DNA of 64,000 bases, from positions 15,947 to 79,946 of the forward strand of contig JBDRCZ010000017.1 in the NCBI GenBank assembly GCA_043821285.1. The letters run 5' to 3'. This DNA comes from Candidatus Omnitrophota bacterium. Its GTDB lineage: Bacteria; Omnitrophota; Gorgyraeia; B26-G9; JBDRCZ01. The notes below the pieces were generated by a model that saw only the letters and a program-made list of their open reading frames with translations, was not told the DNA's origin and did no database searches. The position numbers and the translations under genes were made by a program. Shown one piece after another: positions 29,809 through 62,900 of the stretch. Numbering within the stretch: position 1 is the first letter of the stretch; each line of letters begins with the position of its first letter.

Positions 29809-29834
29809 AATTTTTTGTCATAAGACAAAAAATT
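29809..29834 (-). terminator. Terminator of giant gene A
   Basis: TTTTTTGTC-ATAA-GACAAAAAA hairpin immediately after the stop (minus sense ...GCAATATAA TTTTTTGTCTTATGACAAAAAAT). Confidence 0.55.
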
Positions 29835-39581: not shown

Positions 39582-40047
39582 AAGTTAATAGCCTATCAGT
39601 TAATTCCAAATGTTCCGCCTATCAAACCGGCGGACAGGCAAATAATAAAATCCAAATGACAAATGAATCATTTAATATCTCAATCTAAAAATCAAAATGA
39701 TATATTAAAATTCAAATATTTTTCTCTTTGACAGGATTTACAGGATTAACATGATTTTTTATCCAGTTAATCCTGTCTATTTTCTTATTTTCTCTGTGAA
39801 CTTTGTGTTCTCTGTGGTTATAAATTTTTTTATTTTTTTTAATCGTAATACTCAATACATGCTACTCAATACGCATTACTTTTTATAGTGTGCTCTCTGT
39901 GGTTAAAATATTTTTTGTTTTTTTATCTACATAATCATCCGTATTCTACGCTCTCTTTTATATGCACTATTTTCATTACAATCATACATATTGTAACCGC
40001 TAATAATTACAATCTGTTAAATATATTTATAACAATTTTAATATATA
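39582..40047 (-). promoter_or_regulatory. Long conserved 5' leader of giant gene B (about 465 nt)
   Basis: Shares several blocks with the 59037-59553 leader of gene E: conserved stem-loop TCCGCC-GGTTTGATA-GGCGGA near the start codon, CTCTGTG(A/G)TGATAAATTTTT boxes (CACAGAG in RNA sense), ACTCAATAC heptamers, AATCCTGTCTAT box. Confidence 0.5.
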
Positions 40048-40054
40048 CAAGTAA

Positions 40055-40082
40055 AGTATACCATATTTTTCTGATTTTTCAA
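40055..40082 (-). promoter_or_regulatory. Near-consensus sigma70 promoter of giant gene B
   Basis: Minus sense TTGAAA-N16-TGgTATACT (extended -10). Same sequence context (GTATACCATAT...TTTCAAGG) as the gene E promoter. Confidence 0.5.
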
Positions 40083-40419: not shown

Positions 40420-40447
40420 CTAAAAAATTGCCATAGGCAATTTTTTA
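40420..40447 (-). terminator. Terminator of giant gene C overlapping its stop codon
   Basis: Minus sense GCAATTTAA-AAAATTGCC-TAT-GGCAATTTTTT: 10-bp A/T-flanked stem. The stop-codon region GGCAATTT can alternatively pair with AAATTGCC. Confidence 0.6.
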
Positions 40448-46400: not shown

Positions 46401-47536
46401 CAATACTGTACTGGTTTGCGATACACTGCTTTTGCTGCTACTAATATATTTTTTTCTTTCTCTGTAAGTGCGGTGTCATCATTTGTCCATATCCTAATCA
46501 TTCCGTGTCTTGGTGCTGTTATATAAAATGAAATTTTTGACGCAAGAAACTCTTCCCATTCTTCTGGAGAAGGCACAGTTGATAAATCAGCACGTAAACG
46601 TATAAAACGGTTATAGTTTTTATTTTCGTTATTAATTATGTCTGCCGGAAGCAGCCGCCGGCCAACATGAATTTCTATATTAGAGTTTTCTGGTATTGGT
46701 TGGGTATAACGGCTTCGATCAGGGGTTGAAACATTCCAGTAGTTTTGTGTTGATATACCAAATCTCAAAGATTCGTTATCTATTTTTATGCTCTCGGGAG
46801 CAAAAAACATCATCATAATTGCATGCGCAGGTAAACGTATTGCATCAATCCAGTAGTGAATTCCTTTACGATAACTATACTCAAGGATAATTTTAATACC
46901 ACGTTCAAACAGAACTTTTAATCCGGGTAAAAAGGCAATATTATTAAATACGCTGTTGGTATTTAATCTAAAGACTTCCATATCCCTGGGGACAGTAAGC
47001 ACTATTCGCGGAGACGCACCTTTAATATCTATTTTTCCATAAGTAGTAATTTCACTTTGCAAATCACGCGCCAACCCAAGCAAACTTAGAAAGTCAATTT
47101 CTTTTAGAACCGGGGGTATTCTTTCAACCGTCTCATCATCTGGACAAGGTATTTCTGGAATTTCCCTAATATTTAATTGATTGTTTTTTTTAGAAATTAC
47201 ATAAGAACGTTGTTTACCAGCTGCGCCTGTTGTTACAAACAATACTATCGAACCATCATTCGCAAATCTTTTCTCGCATGCATCAAACTCAAACTTATCT
47301 TTAATATAACTTACGCCAACATGTCCTTCTGCCCAAGTATATGCATCACTTATTTTTTTGTAAAGCATAATATTTTCTGCAAATAGAGGGTCATTTACTT
47401 CCAAAGGCGGGGCAAGATGGGTATGTAGACCTTTTAGATTGCCGCCGGCGGCCCATGAGATGTCTAAGCATAGAAAGGCATTGATTAATATTATGGAAAT
47501 TAGTCTAAAACAAATTGTACGTGTTAAATTATTCAT
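40445..47536 (-). CDS. Giant-family protein C (2363 aa): signal peptide, TM cluster, poly-acidic/poly-basic linker, helical-repeat C-terminal module paralogous to F, C-terminal FEIERAI
   Basis: N-terminus MNNLTRTICFRLISIILINAFLCLDISWAAGGNLKGLHTHLAPPL. DDSDQYDDDEEEDK ... RKKRKREREKE. C-terminal 700 aa align clearly with gene F, e.g. LIFAAVAYTVIAGYDVSKIIPIYIEKEQSYLIN versus LFAVIVYTFIAGGDVSKIILIYIEKEISYLIN. Confidence 0.7.
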   Translation of the reverse strand: MNNLTRTICFRLISIILINAFLCLDISWAAGGNLKGLHTHLAPPLEVNDPLFAENIMLYKKISDAYTWAEGHVGVSYIKDKFEFDACEKRFANDGSIVLFVTTGAAGKQRSYVISKKNNQLNIREIPEIPCPDDETVERIPPVLKEIDFLSLLGLARDLQSEITTYGKIDIKGASPRIVLTVPRDMEVFRLNTNSVFNNIAFLPGLKVLFERGIKIILEYSYRKGIHYWIDAIRLPAHAIMMMFFAPESIKIDNESLRFGISTQNYWNVSTPDRSRYTQPIPENSNIEIHVGRRLLPADIINNENKNYNRFIRLRADLSTVPSPEEWEEFLASKISFYITAPRHGMIRIWTNDDTALTEKEKNILVAAKAVYRKPVQYWDTNKSTQDWDSAENYIKMMKEKEANLNNFDETQRLAIIKALAEQFGVYSVSAVLQIIENLLNEHQNITPQSLGQLVEVIKWWGGEFVLILANYLTTLFNKNKHTEIERIVLRVDSLGLAFYGALLASIKDNELLAVIQNIHNKRILDIRQYNTKIQRLRERLEFFPTDGLKKIKTEGKGDGYKLRIAWWHQDRMIDNTKYAIAGNTILLRNEANSKELIIDILRKEVTFRENDIIWIGNVEYKIVKEDDKIFLSDKENKHDLRKDRNGNIIIDLRALIKTNRAVREFYQESNAGKSVTLNSHPLINGLFLLLIAPFILEVISNITGIPVSVNLGHLPIHAILGLSLIMTFPLYIQPQIQFIPNVWELVKKAVTGAKSAMLIIIDYIEFTIINSLARHEGLLYPVVHFVAARPDALAFFIWKGLAWGFSLLCLLGSTGVRSTRNSALEIDLSFLVKTYLLLDEDTYHEALKDAIDNIIESAHENGQIIEQLIGVINDLTLSEEEIEQLMQEGSGELSEENIRIALMLIIEELINAIDDSDQYDDDEEEDKVVLMKRKARKQYRADSPPIARKKRKREREKENNPQAYTVPLQSGDLRQPEKEGTDTAEVALPKDTVPPSGNNNPLTLNSLEKLAAAFDLSLSPPDRFVRTTAPSNAAQVVHFPEPPSQSDTRALRAAWRNANQRADTNRDAPPTREVAAPSDNQVTFAELLADFDPIKTLTLEELLRRLNHGDNSSQLIEAIKQRLAEYQGIASIEPLQDLLNDREYHEGTRALLRMRIRELVNECDNLKTAVELYLERSWGSSIRNILSEKILRLTGIQKHIAGTIYLFFSNAANTELNDILSQYMCLENEVVHVLGLLIGIQDRTVRKRIIEWLRINKPELDTTIASQIEKLEKELADYYQTPEEIQAFIASAPQEVKNIITEMYNTKDKDEFLEIIKQFAEQIDTNLLNEEAIEITMSALGNCLNSMSVTEIFYLYTAMNQQETKGAEVTRGMIKSIIIIKTVSIPRNVTSISALYYVINNETLCPNEDIKDLARRRMKHIIKNNQDIVALVDVYLSQEWDDEYWNNYLWYRIKALSTAKRLAEVNDRLLSEWSRNPRLPQKTKQAAAAQLSNSIASQGKISEIHLTVSSIEDGIERLTAISDRFKRQQAENNDKTQAQAIAQEMVSKWGGEALAALANLLSKKIHSEVEIYIIFGIIRQVFSLDIENLLRLLTDNSINKYTYGCKQIRGVIAEVLRKRLLGYNDLSNIPELYQMLNTYPNRNSRAPLVERITAIINESEDIEALVDLYKSQAEWAWGLGVVIQNRINALKPPQSCELMLVEDPMQKHSLYPQVLQGAAAMQVASEELPAWQAPVTTREPLLLDMPPAVKARREKLSEVTILLEGVITRTQALNRRQSNERTIQQTINKEQKQTRKNQKKISNLRNNLIVVQDKIQKLRNLLAADWETIEAYLKAEPDFVFEFFTNKIKAQIEGKEERTTEAGEVLGEILQRINIPKHDAETHNLIFAAVAYTVIAGYDVSKIIPIYIEKEQSYLINSGFNSHEILAAFIRLSFAIYRRDKKPLFNALCDVIKEYISRDFSNVNNVLELALKQDKETAMEIFYRMLTDIDDFLYQALTARTQDTNENIRFAIDGVFLADYLLRMEVYLRAVIQDENRLNEFHNLDSVGNLINEVMEKTVDGVSGEIIFSPEFTNAEKFLKHIFRQGTSFELMLLENITVRLNAFTSEDAFKKALELEFLGLFISQRNEDTDVFEKEREMIRSELTDLVTAVKGNNLMINANRRSLESMHRIIGRKYQELIQQQGLTPSNTTIDKLLSILVYFPRNVINEILNKTIMPQAAAGTFIFFDNIYTVRPDYRQTVLETVTKAVANAYTQEDNVQLMMLRPFFEQCLNAIHEKCRAEDRDIVKTIIQEIISDDESILEAKNIDPHISDSDMLLLHALYSLIVAPQERHTGYRVGINGSDTKLEKREIADLFEIERAI

Positions 47537-47853
47537 ATGTTAATACCCTGTTAGTTAATTCCAAATGTTCTAATTCAAGATTTAAAAATTCCAAGATTCC
47601 AGATTCTAAAATTATAAAATTCCCCGCTACAAGGTCGAAGATCCGCCATCGTATTAGTGAAGAACGCTGGCGAACAGGCAAATTCTCTAACCTTCGGCAA
47701 GTAAAACGTTTTGAATCGTTAAATCTTAAAATATTCAAATTTTGGAATTGTTTGTTTTATTCTTCTGTCTTCTATTCTCTACCTTCTGTTTTCTGCTTTC
47801 AATCAGCTGTATCAGTAAACGGTAAACTGCCTGCCTTCCATTAGGGAGGTAAA

Positions 47854-47881
47854 CTAAAAAATTGCCGCAGCAATTTTTTAG
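47854..47881 (-). terminator. Terminator of giant gene D overlapping its stop codon
   Basis: AAAAAATTGC-CGCA-GCAATTTTTT hairpin; minus sense ...GCAATCTAA AAAATTGCTGCGGCAATTTTTTAG. Confidence 0.6.
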
Positions 47882-50800
47882 ATTGCTTGTTCTACTGCCA
47901 ACATTTCATTCCACTCTAACTCTGTAAGTGCAGGGGGTTGTTTAGGCATTGTTGTCAATTGTCCTGGGTTATTATCATGAGGATCCAGTCTTTGCTGCTC
48001 TACAATCTTTATTGCTGCTTCAATAATCGCTGCAGTGTCCATCTTATGTGCACGGTATAATATCTCGTGACTTCTTGCGGATTGTCCCCAACCTTGGATT
48101 CCTAACGAAGTTACAGTTGAACCAGTTGTAAGCAGAGATGAAGTTACTACCTTACTTACTGCTCCGCTTAATATTTTTGGAGAAGCGTCTTGAACAGTAA
48201 TTATTGGCACTCCCCGTTCAAGAAGAGGTGGTAAAGCTTCATCGATTAAATCCAATCTGGTCAAATTTATTACTTTTGCGGTAATATCTTGACTTTCCAA
48301 TTGTTCGCTCGCGGCAATTGCAAATTCCACCATTGCTCCGGCAGCAATAATAATAATATCGCTATTTTGTCCGTTTTCTCTTGGATCTTTAATTACATAA
48401 GCACCTTGTTCTGGACTGGGATTTTCTCCTCTATTTAAAACTGGAACATTTTGACGGGTAAGCTGAAGATAAGAAGGTCCTTTACCATCTAATGCCCTGT
48501 GCATAGCAAAATCTACTGCTTCTTCAGCCTCACGGGCATCTGCAGGTATAAAACCAGTCATTTTTTGCAAAAAAGAAATATAGCGAATAACGCCAGCAAC
48601 GATTACTGACTGATGAGTAGAACCGTCTGGCCCAACGCCTAAGCCGGCATGACTTAACGCAACAATTACCGGTAGTTTTGCCCGGGCAATCACAATTATT
48701 TGACTAATCATTCGGTTAGCAAAACAATCAAAGGTTGCGATAACTGGTATCTTACCATATAATGCTAATCCAGCAGCAATTCCTGCCATTGCTTGTTCTC
48801 TTACTCCGGATGGAACGTATCTTCCATTGGTGTTATGACGAGAAAAAATGCCAAAGTCCCTAGCAAACCAATTCAGTCTTGTAGAACTGGCAATGTCCGC
48901 GCAGAAAGCAATAATCTTTTCGACGCGTTTTCCCCAGTCAAGCATCCTGTTACCAAAACCATCACGTGTAGCAAAATTCCTATTTGCTTGGTATCTAATT
49001 TCTGCCGGTGTTTGTAGCATTGTCATTTGAACCGGCTCTGGCTCTTGTGTTTGTTTAATGTTGCTATAAATAAGCAGATTGAATTCCCCAATCTTATAAG
49101 GAACCATTCCATTCAATGCTTCCATAATTGTTGTGGCCATGATGTGTTCATCAAAACCCCGGGTAATAATTAAAACAGGTTTTCCTGTATTATCCTTGTT
49201 TAGCTGTTCAAAGGTTTGACCTAAGATTTCAGCCTGTTCTTGATTATTATTAGCATTGAGCTCAATCACTCTCCAACCATAAGCTTGCCAAATATTAACT
49301 AATTCCGTGTTTGTCTCTGAAGCTTGAAGGACTAAGCAGAGATTATCTATGCCATTGTGTGCGGCGAATCTAGCTGTTTCTGCAAACTGACCTTCTCTTT
49401 CTTCTTTTTCCGTGGCTAAAGCAATAACTCTGCCAGATGCTGTATCCATTTTAGCTCCAAAAGCTATACCTGCGGCCAGAGAAAGACGCATACCCGCAGG
49501 GAATATTTCTTGAGGACTAAAATCTATTTTCATAAGCCCGTCCGTGGGTTTTTCTTTTCCATCAACTAATTCTTTTGCTACTTCTATTATATTTTCAATA
49601 TCCTTGTCACTCATGGACCAAACAACGGAACCTGCGGTTTTAGAAGATGAAGTTACAGTCCTGCTTACCGCATCACCTAAACATACTGGCAATCCATCAT
49701 AAATTGTAAGAATACGGCTTCCTGGCTCAATATACTCTAAGAGCTCACTTCCTGCACCTAATGAGTCTAATTGCGTAACATTTATGATCTTAGTCATCGT
49801 ACCTTGTGATTCTAACTCATTACTGACTTTTATGGTTTGATGAAGACTTTTACCTGAAGAAATAAGAATAACCCTCTTTTTTGCCGTGTCCCACCCTTCA
49901 GATTGACTTATAACATAGGCACCTTGCTCTGGCTGGGGATTTTCTCCTCTATCTATAACCGGAAGATCTGCAGAACTTAAACGAATATAAGAAGCAGTGT
50001 ACTCATCTGGGATATTAAGTGATGTAGGGGCTTTATTTGTTATTTTAGCCAATAATAATGCATTTTTTATTGCCATATCAGTCAACTCATTAGTTTCATT
50101 AGGATCCCCTGGTTCTAACGCAATTACATTATGCATCAGGTCCATAACTCCTGGGGTAAAACTTAACTCTTCAGATTCAGCCGCTAAAATAAACGGTACC
50201 CTTGCCTGAGCATTTATCCTTAATTGGTCTAACATTTTCATCGCATCATTTTCCGGCAGAAAGACAATCGGCAGCATACCCGAATAACCAAACCCAGCAG
50301 CAAAACTGGCTAAGTGCTGTTCTCTATCCTCAACTAAGAAACATCGCTCGATGAGTTTATTTCTTATATCTTCATCAGTAATCTGTGCAATAAATTCATC
50401 AATAAATCTTTGTTTAGAATCGGAATTATTAAAAATAAATACTATCCGTTCATCTTTTTCTGCCCACTGGAGTAGTCTATTTTTAAATGCAACAGATGGA
50501 GAGACTTCCTCATCCTGTGCATAGTTGGTTCTATCTGGTATTGTTGTCGTGTCTGTTTTTTGTAGAGTACTCTCTTTTGATAAATTGTTTTCTTCTTGTT
50601 CTGTCATTTGGTTATCTGAAATAAATCTATCTACATCTGTTGAAAATCCATAAAAATTCATTTGTTGACTAATATTTTCAATTGTGTTTTCTATTTGGGG
50701 GATAGCTTCAGATAGTTCTTTATCATTTAATGCTCTACCGTGAAACGCGGTTGGATCATCTTCCATAAAATCTACGCCTTTACCTTTTTTTGTCTTGGCA

Positions 50801-53553
50801 ATAATTGCTGTTGGCTTGTTTTTAATGTTTCTTGCTTCTTCACAAGCCGCGATAATTTCTAATGGTTCATGGCCATTAATTTCAATAACATGCCAGCCAC
50901 AACCTCTCCACGAACCTGCGACATCCGCACTATCTACTTCTTTAGTCAAGCTATCAATTTGTGCGCCATTAGCATTTACAAATAAGGTAAGATTATCTAA
51001 CCCTAATTCCGCAATATGCCTGGCAGCCTCTGCATATTGTCCTTCCTGTTCTTCCCCATCACCGGCAATAGCAAAGACGTTGGAGTCACGTCCATGCATT
51101 TTAGCTAGAAGCGCCATACCCGCGGCATTGGAGAGTCCCATACCTAAGGAACCGGTCAAGGCTTCTATACCACGAGTACAAATCCAGTCAGTATGTCCAG
51201 GAAGTCCACTGTTTAACTCTCTTAAATGGGATAATTGCTCTTTTGAAATATAGCCAAGTTTAGCTAAAATAGAATAAACTGCTGGCGCTATATGCCCTTC
51301 AGAAATAACTAACCGGTCACGGTCTGGCCAGCGCGGGTCATTTGGTGTATGATTCATAATCCGCGTTCCATCGGAATATCGTCCAAGATATAAAGTGACC
51401 AGTATCTCAGCCGCAGAGAGCGAACCTCCTGGATGTCCTGAACCAGCTATATTAATCATCTCCAGAATATCATTACGGCACATTTCTGCGATTTTCTTTA
51501 ACATCAAGCTTTGGCGCTGCTGTTCTATATAGTCTTTTCGCCAAAAAGCACCAATTATCAAAACACCAACAAGAAATATAGTATATGCGATCAATAAATG
51601 TATTGGAGATTGAAACAGTGTCATTATTGGTATTGAAATGGTTTCAAAACGATGGCTAAATGTTTTTAGTAGTTCGACAAAAGCTAATAAAATCGCACCA
51701 ATTGTGCCCAATAAGGCATAGGGGTTGAATTGTCGAAGGGTTAAATCTTGAGGAAATATATCTGAATTGTGGGGTGAAACATTAGAATCATCCCCTTTCC
51801 TTTTTAAATATTCTATTGCTCCATTAACCACCAAAAGAGCCCTAAAATATGCCTCTAAATAATCTTCTGCTGTTGTAAGAATAATTTTTTGATCATCTAA
51901 TCCAGAACGTGCTATCGGGTGACCTAAAATGTTTTCGTTTTCAGCCATTCTTTGTGAAGCAATCTTCCGCATATGTGTCCAGTTATGAAGTTGATTTACG
52001 CCTTTCAGCGGTAATAAGAGAGGGTTTCTTATACCCTGTGAGGTATAAAATTTTTCAACATCCTCGTCTTTGAGACCTGTCTGCTCTGGCACAAAATGAG
52101 GAGTATCACTAGGATATGCAGCCTCTGCCAAAAAAACATTTGCTGTTATTCTCCCCGAAGAATAATGTTCTGTTACACATTTTAGGTAAAAAACCAATGT
52201 TCCATTTAAAGCAGAGTCAATAAAGCATACTTGCGATGTATTATTATCAATAATTCCTTCATCAATTAACTGCTCATAAGTTTGTTTTGCTTGTTCAGCA
52301 AAAACCGTGTTTGTTTTTAATGTTTCTTCAAAGGATTGTCTTAATTGTGGATAGAAATTTTCCGGATCTCCTTGTTCTGTAGTATTGCGGCGAACTTTTC
52401 GCAATGTGTCTTCAATAATCTTAAAATTGTCGCGTTTTCTTTTTTCCGGAGTAGGATGATCATCTCCTATATAACCTAACATTTTTCGATCAAGATAAAA
52501 TACAAAAGAATTATCAGGGGGAGCCCCTTTTGTCAAAAGACTCAAATAATACTCGGACTCATAGTAAATTGCTCCATCACGTGCTAAATAAACTCTTCGT
52601 CCTTCAGCAGGTAATTGTTCTAATAAATAAGGGATGATTTTAGCTGTGCCTATTAACCACATAAAAGAATCTTTTTTTTGTCTTGAAGTCAAAAAATGGC
52701 AAAGGCTTCTTAGCTTTATATTCAAACTTCCAGTAAATAAGCCTTGATTTCTTACACCTTGTTCTGTCATTACCAATAACTCTTGCTCTCTTCTTCGTAA
52801 TTCTTCTGCTATTTCTACGTTACTTCTCCATCTCAATTGGTCTGGTTTAAGAACTTGATAATGCGTGCGTACCTCATGCCCTTCGATCGGGCTTAAAAAA
52901 TGTATCGGAAATGTTGGACTTATTTCTGGTACATTAATAGAGGTTAACATCATTTCTAAATCCATGGCTATACCTTCTTCGCCGAGTGGATGTCTTAATA
53001 CTGATAATGCGCGCTCTTTAACTTTATCATTGGGGTCTTCCAATATTATTTTTTTCAAAAATTCAACAACCTTTGTTTTAGCTGTCTCACTTTTGTTCCC
53101 AACAATTCCCAAGAGCCGTATTAAATTACTGCGTGGATTGTCTAACACAACACCACCACGATAAAGAAGATCATCAGGGTCAATAATGGTTGGATCATCC
53201 CAAGCAGCGATTAAGGCATTTATCAGTATAATAGCATCGAGACTTAATAATTTTGGAGCTTCATTTCGTCTCCAAATATTAAACTGCGAAAAAGTTAATC
53301 TTAAAACTTGCGTTAGTTCTTCCCTTTTTATCTCTATAGGGTACTTATTTACTGATTGTGTAGATATACCAAGTGTATTTTGTTCAAAAGGCTCTGTAAG
53401 TGAAGACTTACTTATCTCTAAAGGAGGCGAGAGGTGGGTGGACAAATTTTTCAAATTACTATTTGCCGCCCATGAAATGTCAAGACATAAAAAAGAGTTG
53501 ATTAATATAAAGGCTGTTAGTTTGAATAAAATGTCCCGTTTTATTTTTTTCAT
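47878..53553 (-). CDS. Giant-family protein D (1891 aa): signal peptide, HEAT-like N-region, TM cluster, two tandem transketolase-like modules, C-terminal AVEQAI
   Basis: Module 1: SGHPGGSLSAAEILVTLYLGRY ... IAGDGEEQEGQYAEAARHIAELGLDNLTLFVNANGAQIDS (TPP/PP domain) plus a Tkt-C-like segment RGENPQPEQGAYVISQSEG. Module 2: degenerate PP domain (ATEKEEREGQFAE...), then a Transket_pyr-like FATRDGFGNRML...GVREQAMAGIAAGLALYGKIPVIATFDCFANRMISQIIV...GPDGSTHQSV and a Tkt-C-like RGENPSPEQGAYVIKD. Confidence 0.75.
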   Translation of the reverse strand: MKKIKRDILFKLTAFILINSFLCLDISWAANSNLKNLSTHLSPPLEISKSSLTEPFEQNTLGISTQSVNKYPIEIKREELTQVLRLTFSQFNIWRRNEAPKLLSLDAIILINALIAAWDDPTIIDPDDLLYRGGVVLDNPRSNLIRLLGIVGNKSETAKTKVVEFLKKIILEDPNDKVKERALSVLRHPLGEEGIAMDLEMMLTSINVPEISPTFPIHFLSPIEGHEVRTHYQVLKPDQLRWRSNVEIAEELRRREQELLVMTEQGVRNQGLFTGSLNIKLRSLCHFLTSRQKKDSFMWLIGTAKIIPYLLEQLPAEGRRVYLARDGAIYYESEYYLSLLTKGAPPDNSFVFYLDRKMLGYIGDDHPTPEKRKRDNFKIIEDTLRKVRRNTTEQGDPENFYPQLRQSFEETLKTNTVFAEQAKQTYEQLIDEGIIDNNTSQVCFIDSALNGTLVFYLKCVTEHYSSGRITANVFLAEAAYPSDTPHFVPEQTGLKDEDVEKFYTSQGIRNPLLLPLKGVNQLHNWTHMRKIASQRMAENENILGHPIARSGLDDQKIILTTAEDYLEAYFRALLVVNGAIEYLKRKGDDSNVSPHNSDIFPQDLTLRQFNPYALLGTIGAILLAFVELLKTFSHRFETISIPIMTLFQSPIHLLIAYTIFLVGVLIIGAFWRKDYIEQQRQSLMLKKIAEMCRNDILEMINIAGSGHPGGSLSAAEILVTLYLGRYSDGTRIMNHTPNDPRWPDRDRLVISEGHIAPAVYSILAKLGYISKEQLSHLRELNSGLPGHTDWICTRGIEALTGSLGMGLSNAAGMALLAKMHGRDSNVFAIAGDGEEQEGQYAEAARHIAELGLDNLTLFVNANGAQIDSLTKEVDSADVAGSWRGCGWHVIEINGHEPLEIIAACEEARNIKNKPTAIIAKTKKGKGVDFMEDDPTAFHGRALNDKELSEAIPQIENTIENISQQMNFYGFSTDVDRFISDNQMTEQEENNLSKESTLQKTDTTTIPDRTNYAQDEEVSPSVAFKNRLLQWAEKDERIVFIFNNSDSKQRFIDEFIAQITDEDIRNKLIERCFLVEDREQHLASFAAGFGYSGMLPIVFLPENDAMKMLDQLRINAQARVPFILAAESEELSFTPGVMDLMHNVIALEPGDPNETNELTDMAIKNALLLAKITNKAPTSLNIPDEYTASYIRLSSADLPVIDRGENPQPEQGAYVISQSEGWDTAKKRVILISSGKSLHQTIKVSNELESQGTMTKIINVTQLDSLGAGSELLEYIEPGSRILTIYDGLPVCLGDAVSRTVTSSSKTAGSVVWSMSDKDIENIIEVAKELVDGKEKPTDGLMKIDFSPQEIFPAGMRLSLAAGIAFGAKMDTASGRVIALATEKEEREGQFAETARFAAHNGIDNLCLVLQASETNTELVNIWQAYGWRVIELNANNNQEQAEILGQTFEQLNKDNTGKPVLIITRGFDEHIMATTIMEALNGMVPYKIGEFNLLIYSNIKQTQEPEPVQMTMLQTPAEIRYQANRNFATRDGFGNRMLDWGKRVEKIIAFCADIASSTRLNWFARDFGIFSRHNTNGRYVPSGVREQAMAGIAAGLALYGKIPVIATFDCFANRMISQIIVIARAKLPVIVALSHAGLGVGPDGSTHQSVIVAGVIRYISFLQKMTGFIPADAREAEEAVDFAMHRALDGKGPSYLQLTRQNVPVLNRGENPSPEQGAYVIKDPRENGQNSDIIIIAAGAMVEFAIAASEQLESQDITAKVINLTRLDLIDEALPPLLERGVPIITVQDASPKILSGAVSKVVTSSLLTTGSTVTSLGIQGWGQSARSHEILYRAHKMDTAAIIEAAIKIVEQQRLDPHDNNPGQLTTMPKQPPALTELEWNEMLAVEQAI

Positions 53554-53756
53554 GATTTGTAGATATGTTTATCCATTCCAGATTTTAAAATTCCCCGCCA
53601 TAATGCGTTGACAGGCAGATTCAAAATTTAAATATTTTCTTTGAAACAAGTGTCACATGATTAATCTGATTTTTTATCCTTCTTTATCCTATTAATCCTG
53701 TCTATTTTTTCTGCTTTTTTGTCTTCCAAATTCTGACTTCTGTTTTCTATCACAGT

Positions 53757-55227
53757 ACTTTGTTAAAAATCAGGTCTTTTCAAAAAAATCATTTACGTAA
53801 GTCGTGAAAACTCATAACTTATGTAATTTCAATACTTTACGTTAATTTTTTCCTTGACAATATCCACAACTCCTGCTATGGTATATAGTTGTAATCAAAC
53901 CACCGTAACACACAACAGGAGGTGGATATGGGTATTTTTAATCTCACTATTTCGGTAATCAATAATTTCTTATTTCGTTTTAAACCTGCCTTCTCAAAAA
54001 AACAATTTATCGTTTTCTCCTTCCTGATCTATGCTTTGTTTAAAGACTACAAGAGAAATTCCCTTTATGCCCTCGCCTCTAAAACTCCAATCAACTATCA
54101 GGCTTGTCAGTACTTCTTATCTGAAGGAAAATGGAGTATCGATGATCTTAATAATATAAGGTTAAAAATTATTGAACATCAAAGAACTACTTCTGCTACT
54201 TCCTCCGGCGTCTTAGTTATTGATGATACTTCTCCTAAGCCTTTTGCTAAAGCTACCGCCGGTGCTAAACGTCAACACTGTGGTGTCTTAAATCGTGAAG
54301 AAATCTGTAATGTTGCTGTATTCTCTGCCTTCGCCTCCAAAACTAAACGCTTCCCGATAAACCTTAAATCTTATCTCCCCGCTGAAAAATTCTTATTTGG
54401 CAAAGAGGATGTAGATTTTAAAAGTAAGCTCGATCTTGCCCAAATATTAGTCGATGATGCCTTAGAAAGAAAAATTAAATTCTCTTCCCTCGTCATAGAT
54501 GCATGGTATGCTCAGTCTTCACAATTCCTTGAGTTTGTTCACTGCCAGAGAAAACTGCCCTTCATTGGTGAATTAAAGTCCAATCGTAACATCTTCTTTT
54601 ACCATCCGCTAAAGCGGAAACACTGCTGGATCCAGCAGGATGAGCTGGTGAAACTCATCAAAAAACATTATCCGCATAAGTGTAGGTTTTTTACCTCCAC
54701 GAGCAAAGATGGTAAGAAGAAGTCTTGGGTCTTCTACACCTTCAAGGGACTGCTGAAAGATTGTTCTGTTCCCTTAAGCATAGTGGTGATCTTTGGTAAG
54801 TGGGATAATCAGGATGATAAGAATGTTCATATCCTTATCTCCAATCAGACCCGCCTGGCTACTAAGACCATCATTTCCACCTACCTGCTTCGTTGGGGAA
54901 TAGAGCTTATCTTCAGGGAGCTCAAGGATGTCTTCTCCTTTGACCAATACCAGGTTAGACATACCAAACAGATCGAACGTTACTAGACACTATGCCTTAT
55001 TGCATGGAGCCTGTTATATTGGGTCAAACAAAATGCCTATCTTACCAAAATCCTTGAGCATAAACCTGCTACCTTCTATGACTACAAACAGGCCATTGAC
55101 TCCTTACTCCTTTATGATGCTCATCAGTCTCTTTCAAAGAACAGTCATCTTGCTCAGAAATATTTTAAAATTAAATCGGATAATTTTAAACAGCAAATCG
55201 CTCGCGTTGCCTGATTTTTAACAAAGT
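53757..55227 (+). mobile_element. IS element (IS4/IS701-like DDE family), 1471 bp, perfect 18-bp terminal inverted repeats ACTTTGTTAAAAATCAGG
   Basis: Left repeat at 53757-53774 and its exact reverse complement at 55210-55227 (extendable to about 24-29 bp with 2 mismatches). Single transposase ORF inside. Inserted within the leader of giant gene D, between D and the terminator of E. Target-site duplication not clearly resolvable (CTAT/TAT). Confidence 0.7.
53922..55212 (+). pseudogene. DDE transposase of the IS, interrupted by an in-frame TAG at 54984-54986
   Basis: Track ORF 53922..54986 ends ...YQVRHTKQIERY*. The same frame continues TLCLIAWSLLYWVKQN...QQIARVA to a TGA inside the right terminal repeat (about 55212). 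The Y-x2-R-x3-E ... K tail typical of IS4-type transposases straddles the TAG. TAG is a genuine stop elsewhere in this window. Confidence 0.5.
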
Positions 55228-55285
55228 CCTGTTCTATCATTTAAAACATATAGTAGACAGCAAACTGTACACTGTAAACGGTAAA

Positions 55286-55313
55286 CTAAAAATTGCCGAT
55301 GGCAATTTTTTTA
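55286..55313 (-). terminator. Terminator of giant gene E overlapping its stop codon
   Basis: AAAAATTGCC-GAT-GGCAATTTTTTT; minus sense ...GCAATCTAA AAAAATTGCCATCGGCAATTTTTAG. Confidence 0.6.
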
Positions 55314-58300
55314 GATTGCCTGTTCCACGGCCAAAACCGTATTCAATCCTACTCCTTCAAGTAGCGGAAGTAAAGACATCAATTTCTGCATAGGCTTTTC
55401 ACCCTGCTGTCTGCAACCATCTGGAGTGTCTTTTCTTTCTCCATCTTCCATGAAACTCTGAGAAGCTAAATATCTCATTAGTTCTCCTGTTTGATTAGGA
55501 TTGGTTACTCTTACTATCGTAATATTTTCAACTTTAAGAACTAATCGATCATTACCTCCACTCCAAAATTCATCACCAATATATATGTCAGCTGCTGCAT
55601 CTATTACAGCCGCGGCTTTATCTTCTAAGTTTTCAGTATGTTCTTCTACAAAATCTCCCATTTTTTCATCATAGATGAATTTATGATACCCCGGTTCAGA
55701 GGATATGGTATAAAGAACAAGATTTTTTAATAAACCCTGCTTATCTTTCGGGATAGCAAATAATACCTGGCCTTTTACATTAAATATGTTTCCGCCAGTA
55801 ATTATTCTTAGCTTATATCCAACCTCAAGTAAGTTAAGGAATGCATCCAGATTATCTTCTCCGATTATTCCCCAGTAAGGAACAAGTGTGCCATCCATAT
55901 CTATTCCTATAACCTGAATTTCTTCTAACGGTACATGGCCATTTATAATATCATGGACATTTAATGGAGTATTTTGGGTTGTATCTACTGGGGATAGCGT
56001 GCCAAGTGTTTGTTTTGGGACAAAACTGTTTTCTTGCTCACGCTTTGCTATAAATTTACGGTGTGCAAGGACAATAAAGGTAGAAAGTGCAAGACCTTTA
56101 CCCTGCAATTCTTCTACTGTTTCACGGTTATCTTTAAGCTGCGGATCTAAATATGCCGCCAATAATTGCATAAGCAAAGGTTCATTAAGTAATAAATCTA
56201 CTCCCACGTTAACTTCTTGATAAAGTTTTTTTGCCTTTACATAGTCTGAAAAAAGTTCTCCTAATAACGAGGATTCATTGGTTAATTCCGCATACAAATT
56301 ATCGAATATTTCTTCTACAGATATTAATATATCATTGTACATTTCATCAGAAAGATGGCTTCTTAAAAATTCTTCTTGTTCTTGTACTTTCCACGGAGGT
56401 AGATATTTACTTCTCAAACCGTATTGATTTAAACATTGCTCTAACTTATAAAAGATTATTTGTTCAAGAACACTCTCATTATCAACTTTACTGATCAAAT
56501 TTTCTGGCAAGCGGTTTTTAATAAGATTTTTAAGCAGTGTACCAGTCGCCGATGTACTCAATCCGGTTCCATCAGCAAGTGAGTTTGGTGTCCATTCAAA
56601 AGGCAGCCATTCTGACACAACTATTCCGTGAAGATACTCTCTTCCAAAAGATATTCTTCCTCTTGTTCCTAAACCAAAAGTGTGAAGTTGAATGCCAAAT
56701 TGTTCGTTAAGCTTAGCATTTGTAACAGTGGAAGAGTCAGAATTTTTAAGAAGAGCAGCGAAATGTGCTTCAACCTCTGCTAATGAATCAAGCAAACACC
56801 TTGCTTTATGAAGAGTTACACCAGTTTCAACAATATCATCAATTATAAGAACGTTGCGGTGTTCTCTGAGATACTCGACGACCTTTGTATCATTTAGAAA
56901 TAACCGCAGGTCTTCAGGAGAATCTAAAGAGTATACATCTCTTTCAAAACCCAAACGCACCCTTTCAGCTTCTGTCAATAATGACCAAATTATTGTTGTT
57001 AAATTTAACTTTTGAGTAATAATCCAACTTTGGAATTCAGGTATTTCCTTATTAAATAAGTTATTCGCTTTTAACTGAGTAAGCAAAATTTCCAATGCTT
57101 TGGCAATTGGATCAGCTCCTTTTGAGGGAAAGATAACTAAATTTATATCGTGTTGGATTAAATATTTAACAATAGGAAGAAGTATAGGAGCAAATTGCAA
57201 AACTTGTATGTCTGTTCCTAAAGAATCTATGTCTCCAATTTCTTCACCTAATGCAGCTTCGACCGCCTGCCGAAGCTTTCCAGTATATCTGGAGCGATAA
57301 GGACTACGCAGATATCCTTCAATCGTTGGCAAGTTTTTTGCGATCTCCTTTTCAAGCTCTTCTTCAGCCCTCAAAAACATCTGATGCCCTGTTTCTGTCC
57401 TGAATAAAGTTTCACCCAGAAAATTGCCGTCATCTTTGCCTGATTTTTCATAAAGTCTATACTCTTCTTCAAGGCGCTCTTTATTAGTTTTAAATCTGGC
57501 TCGGATCTGTTCAGGTGTTATTTCTATTCCCGCAGCTTCTAAATCAGCAATAATCCCTTGATAAGTACACATAAATAATCTGTCTGCCTCACGCCATACT
57601 GTTATTAATCTATAAAAAGAAGAAGCATTAGCAAAAGGCCCTTCAAAATTAAACAAAAACTGTCCTTTTTCATATAAAGAAGTATCAACACCCATATTTC
57701 TAAGCTCTACTAAGGCCTGTTCAATAGAAGGATTATCATGAGCTTTTACCACACCACAGATTAAATTTACATTTACATCAGTTGCACTTAAAATACCGGT
57801 TGAAATTAATTGTTGGATTAATTCCCTAATCATTTCGGGGGCTTTTTTCATATGCGCAAGCCTAAACGCGATTGTGTTCTGCGCTAATTCTTTTGCCTTT
57901 AACGAATTTCTCTGTTCAATTTTCTTGCGTATTTGAATAATTCTTGCCCGTGAGCCTTCTAACTTGGCGTACCCAATATCATGTAATAAGGCTAATATTG
58001 CTGCGTTTTTAAATTCTTCATAGGTAAAATCTTCTCCTAATCCAATCTGCACCGCGTTCTCTAAGACTTGAGTATGATGATTTACAGGGTTGCCATTTGC
58101 TCCAGCTTTAAAATGAGGTAAGGCGCTCCAAAAAAGTGTGAAGAGAATATTTTGAATTTCTTGTTTTTGCTGGTCTGTAAATGTGCGGTCTTTTTCAATG
58201 CGGCTTAGTGCATTTTCCAAATTCTGAACTGCTAAACTTTTCTTACACTGAACAAGATAGTAGCCATTCTTTTCTTCAATTACTGCTTCTAATCCATTGT

Positions 58301-59036
58301 CTGTAAGAAATTGTTCAAATTCTGCTTTATTAGAAAAACTAAATCGACCACGTCCAGCGTTTATTGGTTCGGCAATCAATATTTCACCTTCTGAACTAAC
58401 TGCCCGAATATACTCCTTTAATAACTGATCACGTTCTTCACGATTACTAAACATGGTAAAGAACCGAATGCTGACCACTTTAGAAAAACTTCCGTCTTTA
58501 AACCGCATGTCCAAGGCACTGGCTTTTACCAAATCAACATTTTTGCTATCTTGCTTTCTATTTTGAGCAATGTTAAGTAAAATTTCATTGGTATCTAACC
58601 CTGTTATATGTTTGCAAAATTGAGAAATATAAAAAGTGAAATGTCCGGAACCACAACCTATTTCTAAAACTTCATCATCATTATCAATATTAGCTTCAAG
58701 CCAGTCTTTAGGGAAGTCTACAAGATAAGATGCAAGCGTACGATCATAAAAATAGGAAAAATATATCTTTTTGAGCCAATCAACGAGTCTTTCAGTCCAA
58801 GACCTGTGAGGAGAAATATCTCGTGTATCGTTAGGCAGCTTTAGCTGAGTTATATTTATTGTTTCTGCAACGTGTTCTTTAAGAATAGAATTATTTATTT
58901 GCAAAGGCGGAGCAAGGTGGGTGGACAAATTTTTTAAATTACCATTAGCAGCCCAGGAAATATCTAAGCATAAAAAGGCGTTAATTAATATAATCGCTGT
59001 TAGTTTGAATAATATATTTTTTTTAATGTTCAACAT
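55311..59036 (-). CDS. Giant-family protein E (1241 aa): signal peptide, class I SAM methyltransferase, HD domain, type I phosphoribosyltransferase-like and HAD-like phosphatase domains, C-terminal AVEQAI
   Basis: MTase motif I VLEIGCGSGHFT; HD: H..H ... LLHDIGYAK; PRTase: VLIIDDIVETGVTLHKA; HAD motif I VIGIDMDGTLVPYWG. N-terminus MLNIKKNILFKLTAIILINAFLCLDISWAANGNLKNLSTHLAPPL. SD GGAGA 8 nt upstream. Confidence 0.75.
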   Translation of the reverse strand: MLNIKKNILFKLTAIILINAFLCLDISWAANGNLKNLSTHLAPPLQINNSILKEHVAETINITQLKLPNDTRDISPHRSWTERLVDWLKKIYFSYFYDRTLASYLVDFPKDWLEANIDNDDEVLEIGCGSGHFTFYISQFCKHITGLDTNEILLNIAQNRKQDSKNVDLVKASALDMRFKDGSFSKVVSIRFFTMFSNREERDQLLKEYIRAVSSEGEILIAEPINAGRGRFSFSNKAEFEQFLTDNGLEAVIEEKNGYYLVQCKKSLAVQNLENALSRIEKDRTFTDQQKQEIQNILFTLFWSALPHFKAGANGNPVNHHTQVLENAVQIGLGEDFTYEEFKNAAILALLHDIGYAKLEGSRARIIQIRKKIEQRNSLKAKELAQNTIAFRLAHMKKAPEMIRELIQQLISTGILSATDVNVNLICGVVKAHDNPSIEQALVELRNMGVDTSLYEKGQFLFNFEGPFANASSFYRLITVWREADRLFMCTYQGIIADLEAAGIEITPEQIRARFKTNKERLEEEYRLYEKSGKDDGNFLGETLFRTETGHQMFLRAEEELEKEIAKNLPTIEGYLRSPYRSRYTGKLRQAVEAALGEEIGDIDSLGTDIQVLQFAPILLPIVKYLIQHDINLVIFPSKGADPIAKALEILLTQLKANNLFNKEIPEFQSWIITQKLNLTTIIWSLLTEAERVRLGFERDVYSLDSPEDLRLFLNDTKVVEYLREHRNVLIIDDIVETGVTLHKARCLLDSLAEVEAHFAALLKNSDSSTVTNAKLNEQFGIQLHTFGLGTRGRISFGREYLHGIVVSEWLPFEWTPNSLADGTGLSTSATGTLLKNLIKNRLPENLISKVDNESVLEQIIFYKLEQCLNQYGLRSKYLPPWKVQEQEEFLRSHLSDEMYNDILISVEEIFDNLYAELTNESSLLGELFSDYVKAKKLYQEVNVGVDLLLNEPLLMQLLAAYLDPQLKDNRETVEELQGKGLALSTFIVLAHRKFIAKREQENSFVPKQTLGTLSPVDTTQNTPLNVHDIINGHVPLEEIQVIGIDMDGTLVPYWGIIGEDNLDAFLNLLEVGYKLRIITGGNIFNVKGQVLFAIPKDKQGLLKNLVLYTISSEPGYHKFIYDEKMGDFVEEHTENLEDKAAAVIDAAADIYIGDEFWSGGNDRLVLKVENITIVRVTNPNQTGELMRYLASQSFMEDGERKDTPDGCRQQGEKPMQKLMSLLPLLEGVGLNTVLAVEQAI

Positions 59037-59553
59037 AATAAATATCTCCAGTTATTTAATTTTAAATGTCCCGCCTATCAAACCGGCGACAGGCAAATGA
59101 ATCATTAAATAATTCAATCTTTAAAATTTATTTATGTAATTTGTGTGATTTGTTGTTAATAAAATAAGTACTTGAAATCTTTCTTTGTGTGCTCCGTGTC
59201 TCTGTGTGACAAATCTAATATTTTTGTTTCGCTTGTCCGCCGTGCTCTGTTTGGCGGGTCATTCTGGTTTCGTTATTCGTTATTAAATTATCCTGTCTAT
59301 CATCCACAATGATTGGCGGATCTTCAATTTTTTATATTTTCTCTGTGAACTTTGCGAGCTCTGTGGTGATAAATTTTTTATTTTTTTTTACCGCGATACT
59401 CAATACTCATTGCTTTTTATAGTGTGCGCTCTGTGATGATAATTTTTGTTTTGTTTTTTTAGCCACAATGCTCAATACACAATACCCGATACTTAATCAT
59501 ATTACTTTTCATAATGCCTTGTTATAAATAAATTTATAACATCTTTTAAATAG
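59037..59553 (-). promoter_or_regulatory. Long conserved 5' leader of giant gene E (about 515 nt)
   Basis: RNA sense contains at least 6 CACAGAG motifs, TATTGAG/TATTGTG heptamers, an AATCCTGTCTAT box, and the stem-loop GTCGCC-GGTTTGATA-GGCGGGAC 50 nt before the ATG. Collinear blocks shared with the gene B leader. Confidence 0.5.
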
Positions 59554-59560
59554 TTTTATA

Positions 59561-59589
59561 AGTATACCATATAATTACGCAATTTTCAA
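59561..59589 (-). promoter_or_regulatory. Near-consensus sigma70 promoter of giant gene E
   Basis: Minus sense TTGAAA-N17-TGgTATACT, read from + strand AGTATACCATATAATTACGCAATTTTCAA. Confidence 0.55.
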
Positions 59590-59933: not shown

Positions 59934-59961
59934 ACAAAAAGTTGCCATAGGCAACTTTTTA
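59934..59961 (-). terminator. Terminator of giant gene F overlapping its stop codon (covarying stem)
   Basis: AAAAAGTTGCC-ATAG-GCAACTTTTT. Relative to the C, D and E terminators, the A:T pair is replaced by G:C on both arms, a compensatory change. Confidence 0.6.
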
Positions 59962-62900
59962 AATTGCCTGTTCTATAGCATACACCATATCTAATTCAAA
60001 CAAGTTAATCTCTGGCGCATCATCCGGTTGAGATACAATCATTAGAGCAGTGCTTGGTTTTATAGGAGGATTATTTTGATCTAACTCATCTGGGTCATTG
60101 CGGAAAGACCCATATTCATCTTCGCTCCAGGGATAACAATATATTGAAGTTCCCCCATCCTTTTTTTTCTCAAGAAGACCGTATTCTGATAATCGATTAA
60201 GAACTGTCCTTACCCTGTCTGTGCCCATATATCTATAATTGCGGAATTCATCTCTCAATACCTCAGCAACCTCTGATGCTTTAAACTCCCTACCGTTAGC
60301 AAAATTCGCCCAGACTGTACGAAGTATAACTTTTTCATTACCGGGCTGATTGTTCTCCTGTAGTGTAATATTGTCCCAGTAAGATAAATATGATTGGTCA
60401 AATTCCTCTTTTGACAAATCCCGCAATTCCCGTTTATGTTCTTGGTCAATTGCTGCCATCTCACGATATACAATGCATTTGTTTAAGTGTGCGAGTGACA
60501 GCAATAACGGCACATTTTTTATCTGCCCCTTGTTTATTCTTTGCGTTTCTGATATTCTTAAAATCTGTTTATAATATTCTATTGTTTTGTCATAACACGA
60601 TAGTGCTTTTATATATTCTTCTTTATCATTTTGCTCAAAACCATTTTCCGCATATTCAGCGCCTTCTTCAGCATACCATGCAGCTGCTTCTGTAAAAATA
60701 TCTACTGCACCAGCAAAATATTTTTCCTTAATATATTTACTAGCTAACGCTTTATAAACATTAGCGGACATTGGCATACTGCTATCTGGATAAAATTGTT
60801 TTCCTGTTGACTGGTTACTAGTTCTCGTGTGTGATGGTATTATCATTCTTGCAGGTGTGCTACTTTGGGGAGAAACTCCATTATATGTTGTATCAAAACC
60901 CCTAGTATATGCGAATTGCCATTTTTGTGGTATGATATTTCGTAATACCTCCGCGATAAAGGCAGGTGGGGTTAAAATCCAATTTGCTACCTTGATTAAG
61001 GCTTCAGAATATCTTTTACCTTCTAATTTATCCTCCATCCATTTTAGTACTGTAGCGCGCTGCCAGAAGCCAAGATATTCTCCAAAGAAATAGAAAAATA
61101 CTACTGCTGCCCATCCTCCCACACCCGCCAGGTCAAAAGGTATAATTAAACGGCCCGCACCTCTATTTCTGAGTCTATCTTGTATAACAAAATGCGGCAG
61201 TGGGACATTAAACCTTAATATCTGCCTTTCTCTACTTAATATTAAATCAGCATTGCCTAAATTTGCTTTACCGATAACTTCATCTATAATACTCCTCACA
61301 ATCACTTTTTCTCGATTATTACACCCGCGGTAAATCGCTCTAAAATATTCTCTTAGTAGAGAACGGATCATTATAAGCTGAACATTGTCTTGTCTTATGT
61401 ATACTTCAGCAGCTGAACGTACTGCTATTTCAAGTGCTTCTTGTTTGTGCGCTGGCAATATTCTGTATGTCTGATTAGCCACTGTGCCCCTATCTTGTGT
61501 GACATAAGGGGCTATCACTTTAAAAAGTACATGCCGTGCATCTGCTTGAGAAAGATATACTAATCCTTTTAATGTGTCATCCATGACCGCTTTAGTTAAC
61601 GGGTGTTGTCCTGGATTTTGAATAGAACTGTAAATTCTAGCGATAATTTCTATATTAATTCTCTCTATAGGTGTAGAATCTATTTTAAATTCATAGCTTC
61701 CTACATCGTCTTTTCTAACGGTCTGCACAATTTCATTTACTTTTTGAATAATCTCTTGTCTTTCATCTTTTAAAAGGCCTATATCTTCTCTTGATAAAAA
61801 GCTTGCTAAAAACTCCAGTTCTAATGCTTGCTGAAGAGCATTTTCTGGAGAAAAATTATTAATCCCTTGTTTAAGAGCATCCATCATGGAAACTTCTAAG
61901 TTTATACCAGGGCGATAAGTGTGTAAAAAAAACCTTTTGATATTGATAAATTCTGGCAAAAGAATAACCTCTTTAGTGTCTAAATTTATAGTCTCATTTA
62001 TAGTTTCTTCTAATATAGAGCTAAACGGGCGAAGAAGTACTAATCTTTCATAAAGAGTCTCATCTGAATGAAAAAATGTTAAATAGATCACAAGTCTTAA
62101 ATAATAATCCGCCAGAAAAACACCATCTACAGTAAACTCTATGTTACCATCTTTATCTCTACGGCTTACAGTTAAACATTTGTACAAAAAATTATCTATC
62201 TCTGTAAGCATCCGATATAAGATTTCCATCGCGGTTTCTGTATTCTGTTCTAAGGCAAGCTCAAGAACATTAGTGACATTTGAGAAATCTTGCAAAACAA
62301 CATATTCTTTAAGAACACCCCATAGACTATCAAACAACTCATGGTCTTCACGATGATAAGCAAATGCAGCCAGGCCAACAAATGACGCTAAGTTTGCTTT
62401 TAAATTTAAACCGGTATTTATCAAATAGCTTATTTCCTTTTCTATATAAATGAGTATAATTTTAGAAACATCACCTCCGGCAATAAAGGTATAAACAATC
62501 ACTGCAAAAAGGGCGTCGTGTAATTCCTCATCTTCCGGAGATATATTTAATCGTTGAAGTATTTCAGCCAACACTGCTATTACCATATCAATTTCTTCGA
62601 TATTATCTTGTATATGCACGCGCATTTTATTAATAAAAAATACCAAAACATGGCGAAGTTCATTTTTTAGATGACTGTCCAATTTTTCCCAGTCTCCTTC
62701 TTCCGTTTCTGTTAAACTTTGTATTTCAGCTTGGACACGGTCTAATTCTTCATTCAACGAGTTTATTCTTTCTGTATTTGAAGGGGCCGGACTTCTCTGT
62801 CTCTGTCTTTGTCTCTGCCGCCTTGAGCTTCTTGGTTCTGACCTACGCTGTAAGTTTTGTATTTCCCGGGTAATCTCTTGCTCTCGCCCTTTCAGCGCCG

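Follow-up and report, generated by a model that had tools for sequence, protein, structure and literature searches.

In a Candidatus Omnitrophota genome, an insertion sequence (IS) whose transposase frame is interrupted by an in-frame TAG codon separates the tandem giant genes E and D. The locus raises the question of whether this TAG is a recent nonsense mutation in an ordinary mobile element or a site of programmed read-through. We addressed this with a computational analysis of the surrounding 64-kb stretch of DNA, referred to in the following as the window, and of related elements in sequence collections. The results make it very likely that this is an ordinary IS701-family IS, the transposase of which was knocked out by a recent single-base change from TGG to TAG, and that the TAG acts as a plain terminator with no recoding involved.

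Borders of the Element

A preliminary description of the locus had placed an IS with perfect 18-bp terminal inverted repeats (TIRs) at 53757–55227. An IS is indeed present, but its true ends lie 4 bp further out on each side, at 53753 and 55231. The perfect 18-bp repeat is real as well, but it is the core of a longer repeat of 22 bp, in which 21 of the 22 positions are identical. With these corrections, the borders of the IS and its target-site duplication are now defined:

53753..55231, plus strand: complete IS701-family insertion sequence, 1,479 bp (the ends match the related end-to-end contig L002, and the terminus is conserved in relatives)
53753..53774, plus strand: left inverted repeat (IRL), CAGTACTTTGTTAAAAATCAGG (from the repeat search; fits the IS701 end consensus ---YACT-Y--YR, PMC2266710)
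55210..55231, minus strand: right inverted repeat (IRR), 21/22 identical to IRL; includes the natural transposase TGA at 55213–55215
53745..53752, no strand: target-site duplication TTCTATCA, left copy, identical to 55232–55239
55232..55239, no strand: target-site duplication TTCTATCA, right copy, identical to 53745–53752

The repeat search of the window detected the inverted-repeat arms at 53752–53774 and 55210–55232. The related sequence L002, a 1,482-bp Logan contig encoding a transposase with 83% identity, starts with CACTACTTTGTTAAAAA and finishes with ...AACAAAGTCCTG; its two ends align with 53753 and 55231 exactly. About 30 relatives share the conserved terminus CAKTACTTTGTTAAAA, and both termini of about 30 related elements carry the sequence CA(T/G)(T/G)ACTTTGTTAAAA, with protein identities reaching down to about 50%. 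The 17-nt termini of the clade are almost invariant, even where the transposases themselves are only about 50% identical. When the 64 kb were searched with the 22-mer CAGTACTTTGTTAAAAATCAGG, two sites were found, one exact and one with 1 mismatch, corresponding to the two ends of the IS; the number of matches expected by chance is 0.00. Immediately outside the 53753 and 55231 borders lies a perfect 8-bp direct repeat, TTCTATCA, the signature of a genuine transposition event. In those relatives for which a duplication could be detected, its length was 5–9 bp, with a mode of 7 bp.

A BLAST search of the element against the 64-kb window showed no second copy, either full or partial. The sole other match was a stretch of 20/22 identical positions inside gene E, at 57436–57457, which is probably due to chance. 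Exact-protein look-ups with the truncated transposase and with the gene E product pointed to no further contig or assembly carrying the locus. When clustered at 90% identity, the transposase, D and E proteins each formed a cluster of one, and neither a near-identical strain nor an IS-less allele was found in this protein cluster collection. The IS was assembled inside an 86-kb contig, suggesting that its copy number in the genome is low.

The Transposase Gene and Its Interrupted Frame

The transposase gene is encoded on the plus strand and has the following features:

53854..53882, plus strand: promoter-like site TTGACA-17-TATGGT (10/12, with TG) of the transposase gene, conserved in the related contigs L001 and L002
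53917–53922, plus strand: Shine-Dalgarno sequence AGGAGG of the transposase gene, read from the sequence
53928..54986, plus strand: transposase ORF as now read, ATG at 53928, 352 codons plus TAG (GenBank MFH1776246.1)
54222–54227, 54498 and 54903, plus strand: DDE residues D99/D100, D191 and E326, respectively, within the transposase ORF
54882–54926, plus strand: YREK motif, Y-x2-R-x3-E-x6-K (YLLRWGIELIFRELK), residues 319–333 of the transposase ORF
54984..54986, plus strand: premature TAG, codon 353, replacing an invariant Trp (TGG), from the comparison of homologs and DNA loci
54987..55215, plus strand: orphaned 3' remainder of the gene, with 75 sense codons followed by TGA, which aligns with relatives along its whole length

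The in-frame TAG was found where it had been described, at 54984–54986. As had also been stated, the frame continues past it into the right TIR, remaining open for 75 codons to the TGA at 55213–55215. The full-length frame corresponds to a protein of 428 amino acids, of which the current product comprises 352. The promoter, the Shine-Dalgarno sequence and both ends of the IS are intact.

A protein search with the read-through translation returned 497 homologs, many of them 424–432 residues long and aligned with 100% coverage. The best homologs were 84, 83 and 81% identical, and the only 100% match was the window's own 352-aa GenBank product. Pfam identified the transposase as DDE_5 (1.1e-21) and also as DDE_Tnp_1. 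In an alignment of 19 sequences, the catalytic residues D99/D100, D191 and E326 were invariant, and the YREK motif (Y319, R322, E326 and K333) was both complete and invariant. This motif had been thought to straddle the stop, which proved to be mistaken, as the whole motif lies upstream of the TAG at codon 353.

Family Assignment

When the read-through translation of the transposase was compared with NCBIfam profiles, the IS701 model NF033540 exceeded its curated cut-off of 150 bits with a score of 180.7, aligning residues 13–365 with positions 3–361 of the 363 in the profile. The corresponding test with IS4 profiles failed. The best of these, NF049925, reached 61.3 bits against a cut-off of 250, other IS4 models scored 35.6 against 115, 34.1 against 152 and 25.4 against 160 bits, and the IS4, IS1634 and IS1380 models were all far under their NCBIfam cut-offs. 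IS701 elements are 1,400–1,550 bp long and have ends of the form ---YACT-Y--YR (De Palmenaer, Siguier and Mahillon 2008, PMC2266710). Like them, the element described here is filled by one DDE transposase ORF, has a length (1,479 bp) within this range and has ends, CAGTACTTTGTTA, that fit the consensus. Based on transposase homology and terminal sequence, the element is best assigned to the IS701 family, within which its clade is atypical and shows some IS4-like traits.

Compared with the textbook description of IS701, target duplications in this clade are longer and the YREK motif is complete. The IS701 duplication is given as "exactly four" bp in almost all elements, which makes this length typical rather than universal, and the Tyr of YREK is present in only 4 of 27 classical members (PMC2266710). 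In contrast, the duplication here is 8 bp, with the 5–9 bp of the relatives pointing the same way, and the Tyr that is usually absent is in place. A complete YREK and duplications of 7–13 bp are found in the IS4 family, with 8–9 bp in the IS50 subgroup (PMC2266710). The element shares both properties, but these are resemblances only, given the failed IS4 profile test.

The similarity extends to the fold. When P0001, the closest intact homolog, was modelled with AlphaFold (pLDDT 85, pTM 0.85), the structure matched the Tn5 transposase over its full length, with a Foldseek E-value of 3.6e-12 and a TM-score of 0.56, and Tn5/IS50 (1MUH, 1MUS and 4DM0) was the best full-length structural match. The spacing of the YREK residues is the same as in Tn5, and even the residue numbers, Y319, R322, E326 and K333, are shared (PMC2566895), although the latter is a coincidence. 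Like Tn5/IS50, the element has 5'-CA ends, and its 8-bp duplication falls inside the 8–9 bp of the IS50 subgroup. Unlike Tn5/IS50, however, its sequence identity to that transposase is only about 12%, the IS4 models score below cut-off, and no meaningful match for the transposase turned up when the PDB was searched by sequence.

The closest sequences, at 84% amino acid identity, are unnamed Logan contigs, whereas the IS701-type transposases named in plasmid records (e.g., ISNpu7-like), as found in a plasmid protein search, are only 25–29% identical. Profile scans of metagenome contigs and of a genome contig set that does not include the source genome returned relatives with at most 57% identity, mostly from anammox Planctomycetota, and no sister copies; these relatives were used in comparing the codon at the TAG position and the termini. 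Overall, the hosts of the clade include Omnitrophota, anammox Planctomycetota and Patescibacteria. As far as could be seen among the sequences compared, the element has not previously been named. The near-invariant termini, full YREK and duplications of about 7–8 bp might be taken as the marks of an undescribed subgroup that bridges IS701 and IS4, but we consider such a status for the clade quite unlikely.

Origin of the Premature TAG

In the protein alignment, the column that contains the TAG was Trp in 18 of 18 homologs, at 53–84% identity, within the consensus ...QIERYW(T/S/A/N)LCLIAW.... Because protein databases are biased toward intact ORFs, the position was also examined in related DNA loci from Logan, JGI metagenomes and GTDB genomes, which were scanned regardless of gene calls. 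All 51 loci had TGG at this position. The two closest elements (about 84% amino acid identity) read TAC-TGG-ACC, where the window reads TAC-TAG-ACA. The TAG is thus a single G-to-A transition away from TGG, with the changed base at 54985; the outgroups by which the change is polarised as TGG to TAG share at most 84% identity with the element.

The dN/dS ratio between the window copy and L001 or L002 was 0.155–0.16 downstream of the TAG and 0.11–0.14 upstream of it. As a control, the same comparison between the two intact copies L001 and L002 gave a dN/dS of 0.144 for the downstream segment. Purifying selection is thus still visible downstream of the TAG, showing that the mutation is recent. 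The suggestion that this was a very recent nonsense mutation is borne out by the invariant Trp and TGG and by the unchanged dN/dS downstream. The accompanying claim that no other decay was visible is nearly correct, except that the window copy alone has lost one codon, right after the catalytic DDT at about nt 54231, and carries a private change, N384Y, at an otherwise invariant column downstream of the TAG. The missing codon adjoins a loop (residues 104–114) that is disordered in the model of the homolog P0001, with pLDDT below 50.

Disrupted copies are common in this clade. The frame was broken in 12 of 33 distinct end-to-end elements, including the window copy, with intactness judged by the length of the open frame. 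In two of these elements, L026 and L032, the stop falls seven residues further downstream and affects another Trp codon.

Consequences of the Truncation

In the model of P0001, the TAG site is near the start of a helix comprising residues 347–369, which is followed by helices at 384–403, 407–414 and 419–428. The lost residues, 353–428, correspond to the four conserved C-terminal helices of the Tn5-like model and include many invariant columns, among them W360, Y364, K367-Q368-N369 and the LSKN block. All three catalytic residues and the YREK motif are upstream of the TAG. Dimerisation of the Tn5 transposase in the synaptic complex depends on its C-terminal domain. Judging from this comparison, the 352-residue product is most likely inactive. 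The GenBank entry MFH1776246.1, a 352-aa protein listed as "transposase", would then be the truncated pseudogene product of a 428-aa IS701-family transposase.

Alternative Explanations

An uninterrupted, well-conserved frame of 75 codons beyond the TAG, in an element that otherwise shows only slight damage, could also result from programmed read-through or recoding of the TAG, which would yield full-length transposase at some frequency while keeping its levels low. However, a recent nonsense mutation also predicts the conserved downstream frame, and none of the 18 proteins or 51 DNA loci has a stop at the TAG position, which is Trp/TGG throughout. The RNA at 54975–55070 (96 nt, starting 9 nt before the TAG) folds no better than shuffled sequences, with a minimum free energy of −12.2 kcal/mol compared to a shuffle mean of −14.5 kcal/mol (z = +0.82). 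TAG is also a normal stop elsewhere in the window, as the preliminary description had noted: it terminates three other ORFs, and it ends genes at their natural C-termini. In the M50 peptidase ORF, for example, the Pfam match ends at profile position 220 of 221, five residues before its TAG. Neighbouring giant ORFs of 995 to 2,363 codons, about 10,000 codons together, have no in-frame TAG. No suppressor tRNA(CUA) was found in the 64 kb, where tRNA-Gly(CCC) is the only tRNA, and an Rfam scan of the window detected tRNA only. No genetic code is known in which TAG is decoded as Trp. Programmed −1 frameshifting occurs in the IS1 and IS3 families, and programmed recoding sites are conserved within a family. 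The element resembles such cases in having an interrupted transposase frame with a conserved downstream part, but differs in that the stop is at an invariant Trp, is shared with no relative and is not accompanied by a stimulatory structure. With no relative having a stop there, no downstream structure, and TAG used as a terminator, we consider programmed read-through, which had been proposed as one of two options for this TAG, highly improbable. That a leaky TAG gives trace amounts of full-length transposase is a possibility still more remote than the bridging status of the clade mentioned above. Nothing about the IS gives cause to suspect that stop codons are recoded in this Omnitrophota genome.

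Alternatively, the TAG may not be fixed in the organism and may stem from an error in the assembly or its consensus, or from a variant carried by a minority of the population behind the assembled genome; the real element would then have TGG and be active. The source is a metagenome-assembled genome, the difference is one base only, and the rest of the element is intact. Nevertheless, we think this unlikely, since substitution errors are rare in assembled consensus sequence, the copy is not pristine, having its private one-codon deletion and N384Y, and about a third of the related elements are truly disrupted. We give very little credence to a functional role for the 352-residue protein, for example as a trans-acting inhibitor or a DNA-binding regulator of related transposases, for which the TAG allele would have been maintained. 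Such a protein would retain its DNA-binding region at the N-terminus along with the complete DDE/YREK core, and it could be expressed from the intact promoter and Shine-Dalgarno sequence. There is also a precedent in Tn5, which encodes a truncated inhibitor protein, and the PDB entry 1b7e, "transposase inhibitor", was among the fold matches. The Tn5 inhibitor, however, lacks the N-terminus, not the C-terminus, and the same truncation is found in no relative. Moreover, the region past the TAG is undecayed, leaving no time for selection on the truncated form, and no other copy to be regulated was found in the 64-kb window.

With a recent TGG-to-TAG mutation as the preferred explanation, the history of the locus can be reconstructed as follows. 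A 1,479-bp IS701-family IS encoding a Tn5-like DDE enzyme transposed into the short, AT-rich spacer between the tandem giant genes E and D, 199 bp upstream of the D start, and the insertion duplicated the 8-bp target TTCTATCA. Later, recently on the element's evolutionary timescale, a G-to-A change converted the Trp353 codon from TGG to TAG, leaving a 352-residue protein with the DDE/YREK core retained and the last 76 residues gone. If this truncated product is inactive, the element would be a fresh fossil, mobile only when transposase is supplied in trans by an intact copy.

The Insertion Site and Gene D

The IS is located between the gene E stop (55311) and the gene D ATG (53553). Both genes are on the minus strand, and the transposase gene points away from D; the proteins of the locus are MFH1776245 to MFH1776247. 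The insertion upstream of gene D was confirmed, at a distance of 199 bp from the ATG. The following features were identified in the sequence on either side of the element:

53554..53752, minus strand: remaining spacer between the IS and D, 199 bp, including one copy of the target duplication, from reading of the sequence
55250..55278, minus strand: weak promoter-like site TTTACA-17-TACTAT (9/12), in the orientation of D and a short distance upstream of the insertion; a candidate promoter of D itself
55288..55310, minus strand: terminator-like hairpin AAAAATTGCC-ATC-GGCAATTTTT, directly after the gene E stop; the remaining family members are followed by the same hairpin

Without the IS and one copy of the duplication, the spacer between E and D is AT-rich and 270 bp long. 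By comparison, the upstream spacers of the other family members are 320 bp for A, 341 bp for C, 863 bp for B and 922 bp for E. B and E have a strong promoter-like sequence, TTGAAA-16/17-TATACT with TG, about 474 and 525 nt before their respective ATGs. The short D spacer, just 270 bp, indicates that D never had a long promoter-plus-leader region of the B/E type. At the reconstituted D site (…TGATAGAAAACAGAAGTCAGAAT…), the sequence is continuous with a purine-rich AGAAAACAGAAG block that occupies the corresponding position in front of A and C, which supports a clean insertion. The upstream regions of the paralogs are purine-rich and of low complexity, making their global alignment poor, and this alignment was used only to assess the continuity of the spacer.

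It is plausible that the IS has separated gene D from its promoter. The 71 bp beyond the insertion point contain E's terminator-like hairpin and the weak TTTACA-17-TACTAT site, which is now 1.49 kb further from D; the total number of promoter-like sites in the region is not clearly above that expected from shuffled sequence. The GTGACA-N16-TATTTA sequence that had been pointed out as a remaining candidate promoter is present on the minus strand, but its position is 53656..53629 and it fails the criteria of the promoter scan. A site scan found no terminator-like site across the IS in the path to D, and a promoter scan gave no convincing site directed outward from the D-proximal end of the IS. 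As read from the sequence, whatever drives D, be it the weak site or read-through from E, would now have to cross 1.48 kb of the IS in antisense, and the IS may have a polar effect on gene D. In the tandem giant-gene family, gene D alone has had its upstream region disrupted, a point that may be useful should the expression of the family be studied. A leader block that is common to D and B (about 53650–53706) stays on D's side of the IS.

Tandem giant genes and their shared termini

Six giant genes lie in tandem on the minus strand (29833-63891), with products of 995-2,363 aa:

29833-32820, minus, giant gene A
33141-39581, minus, giant gene B
40445-47536, minus, giant gene C
47878-53553, minus, giant gene D (annotated as transketolase-like)
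55311-59036, minus, giant gene E (annotated as methyltransferase-domain-containing)
59959-63891, minus, giant gene F

In at least five of the six products the N-terminal region carries a common signal-like block about 45 aa long (..ILFKLTAIILINAFLCLDISWAA..NLK.L.THLAPPL..), and the C-terminal tail (V/I/A)E(Q/R)AI is present in all six; the middle regions are unlike one another and enzyme-like in appearance. That both termini recur across the family points to a targeting or secretion signal common to the products.

Sites flanking the giant genes

Genes B and E are preceded by near-identical strong promoter-like sites (TTGAAA-16/17-TATACT, with a TG upstream):

40055-40082, minus, strong promoter-like site of gene B, about 474 nt before the ATG
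59561-59589, minus, strong promoter-like site of gene E, about 525 nt before the ATG

At these distances from the start codons, the leaders of B and E would be very long. No strong site of this type was found upstream of genes A, C and D, where the spacers are short. The residual region between the insertion sequence (IS) and the D start codon contains a promoter-like TTGACA-17-AATATT (10/12) at 53608-53636 on the plus strand, oriented toward the IS and away from gene D.

Closer to the genes, 30-60 nt 5' of the ATG, a hairpin-like conserved block, TTTGCCTGTC(C)GCCGGTTTGATAGGCGG(A/G)ACATTT, was observed on the minus strand, and an Rfam search returned no family matching it:

about 39600-39650, minus, start-proximal block of gene B
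about 59050-59100, minus, start-proximal block of gene E
about 47600-47700, minus, variant block of gene C
about 53575-53615, minus, variant block of gene D

Directly 3' of four genes is an AT-rich hairpin, AAAA(A)TTGCC-NNN-GGCAATTTTT, followed in each case by repeated GTTTACC/GTTTAC motifs:

about 40436-40454, hairpin 3' of gene C
about 47854-47881, hairpin 3' of gene D
about 55288-55310, hairpin 3' of gene E
59936-59958, equivalent site 3' of gene F

Possible roles for this hairpin are that of a bidirectional terminator common to these genes, or that of a recombination or regulatory site.

Within gene E, 57436-57457 agrees at 20 of 22 positions with an internal portion of the right end of the IS (TTGCCTGATTTTTCATAAAGTC versus TTGCCTGATTTTTAACAAAGTC). 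A BLAST search within the window gives it an E-value of 0.023. The match is probably due to chance.

Relatives of the IS

Among the related loci compared (L003-L103), those at about 50-57% amino acid identity come mostly from anammox Planctomycetota, including Candidatus Brocadia pituitae (L072), Scalindua rubra (L081) and Brocadia sapporoensis (L102); other relatives in the protein search carry Patescibacteria names. Between the L003-L103 relatives and the Omnitrophota element, the 17-nt termini are nearly the same, and this points to horizontal spread of the clade among groundwater and anoxic-sediment lineages. Two loci, L026 (JGI contig Ga0209417_1037863) and L032 (JGI contig Ga0208977_1022689), carry an independent nonsense mutation at a different conserved Trp, reading LVA*T instead of LVAWT, seven residues downstream of the position of the TAG in the window.
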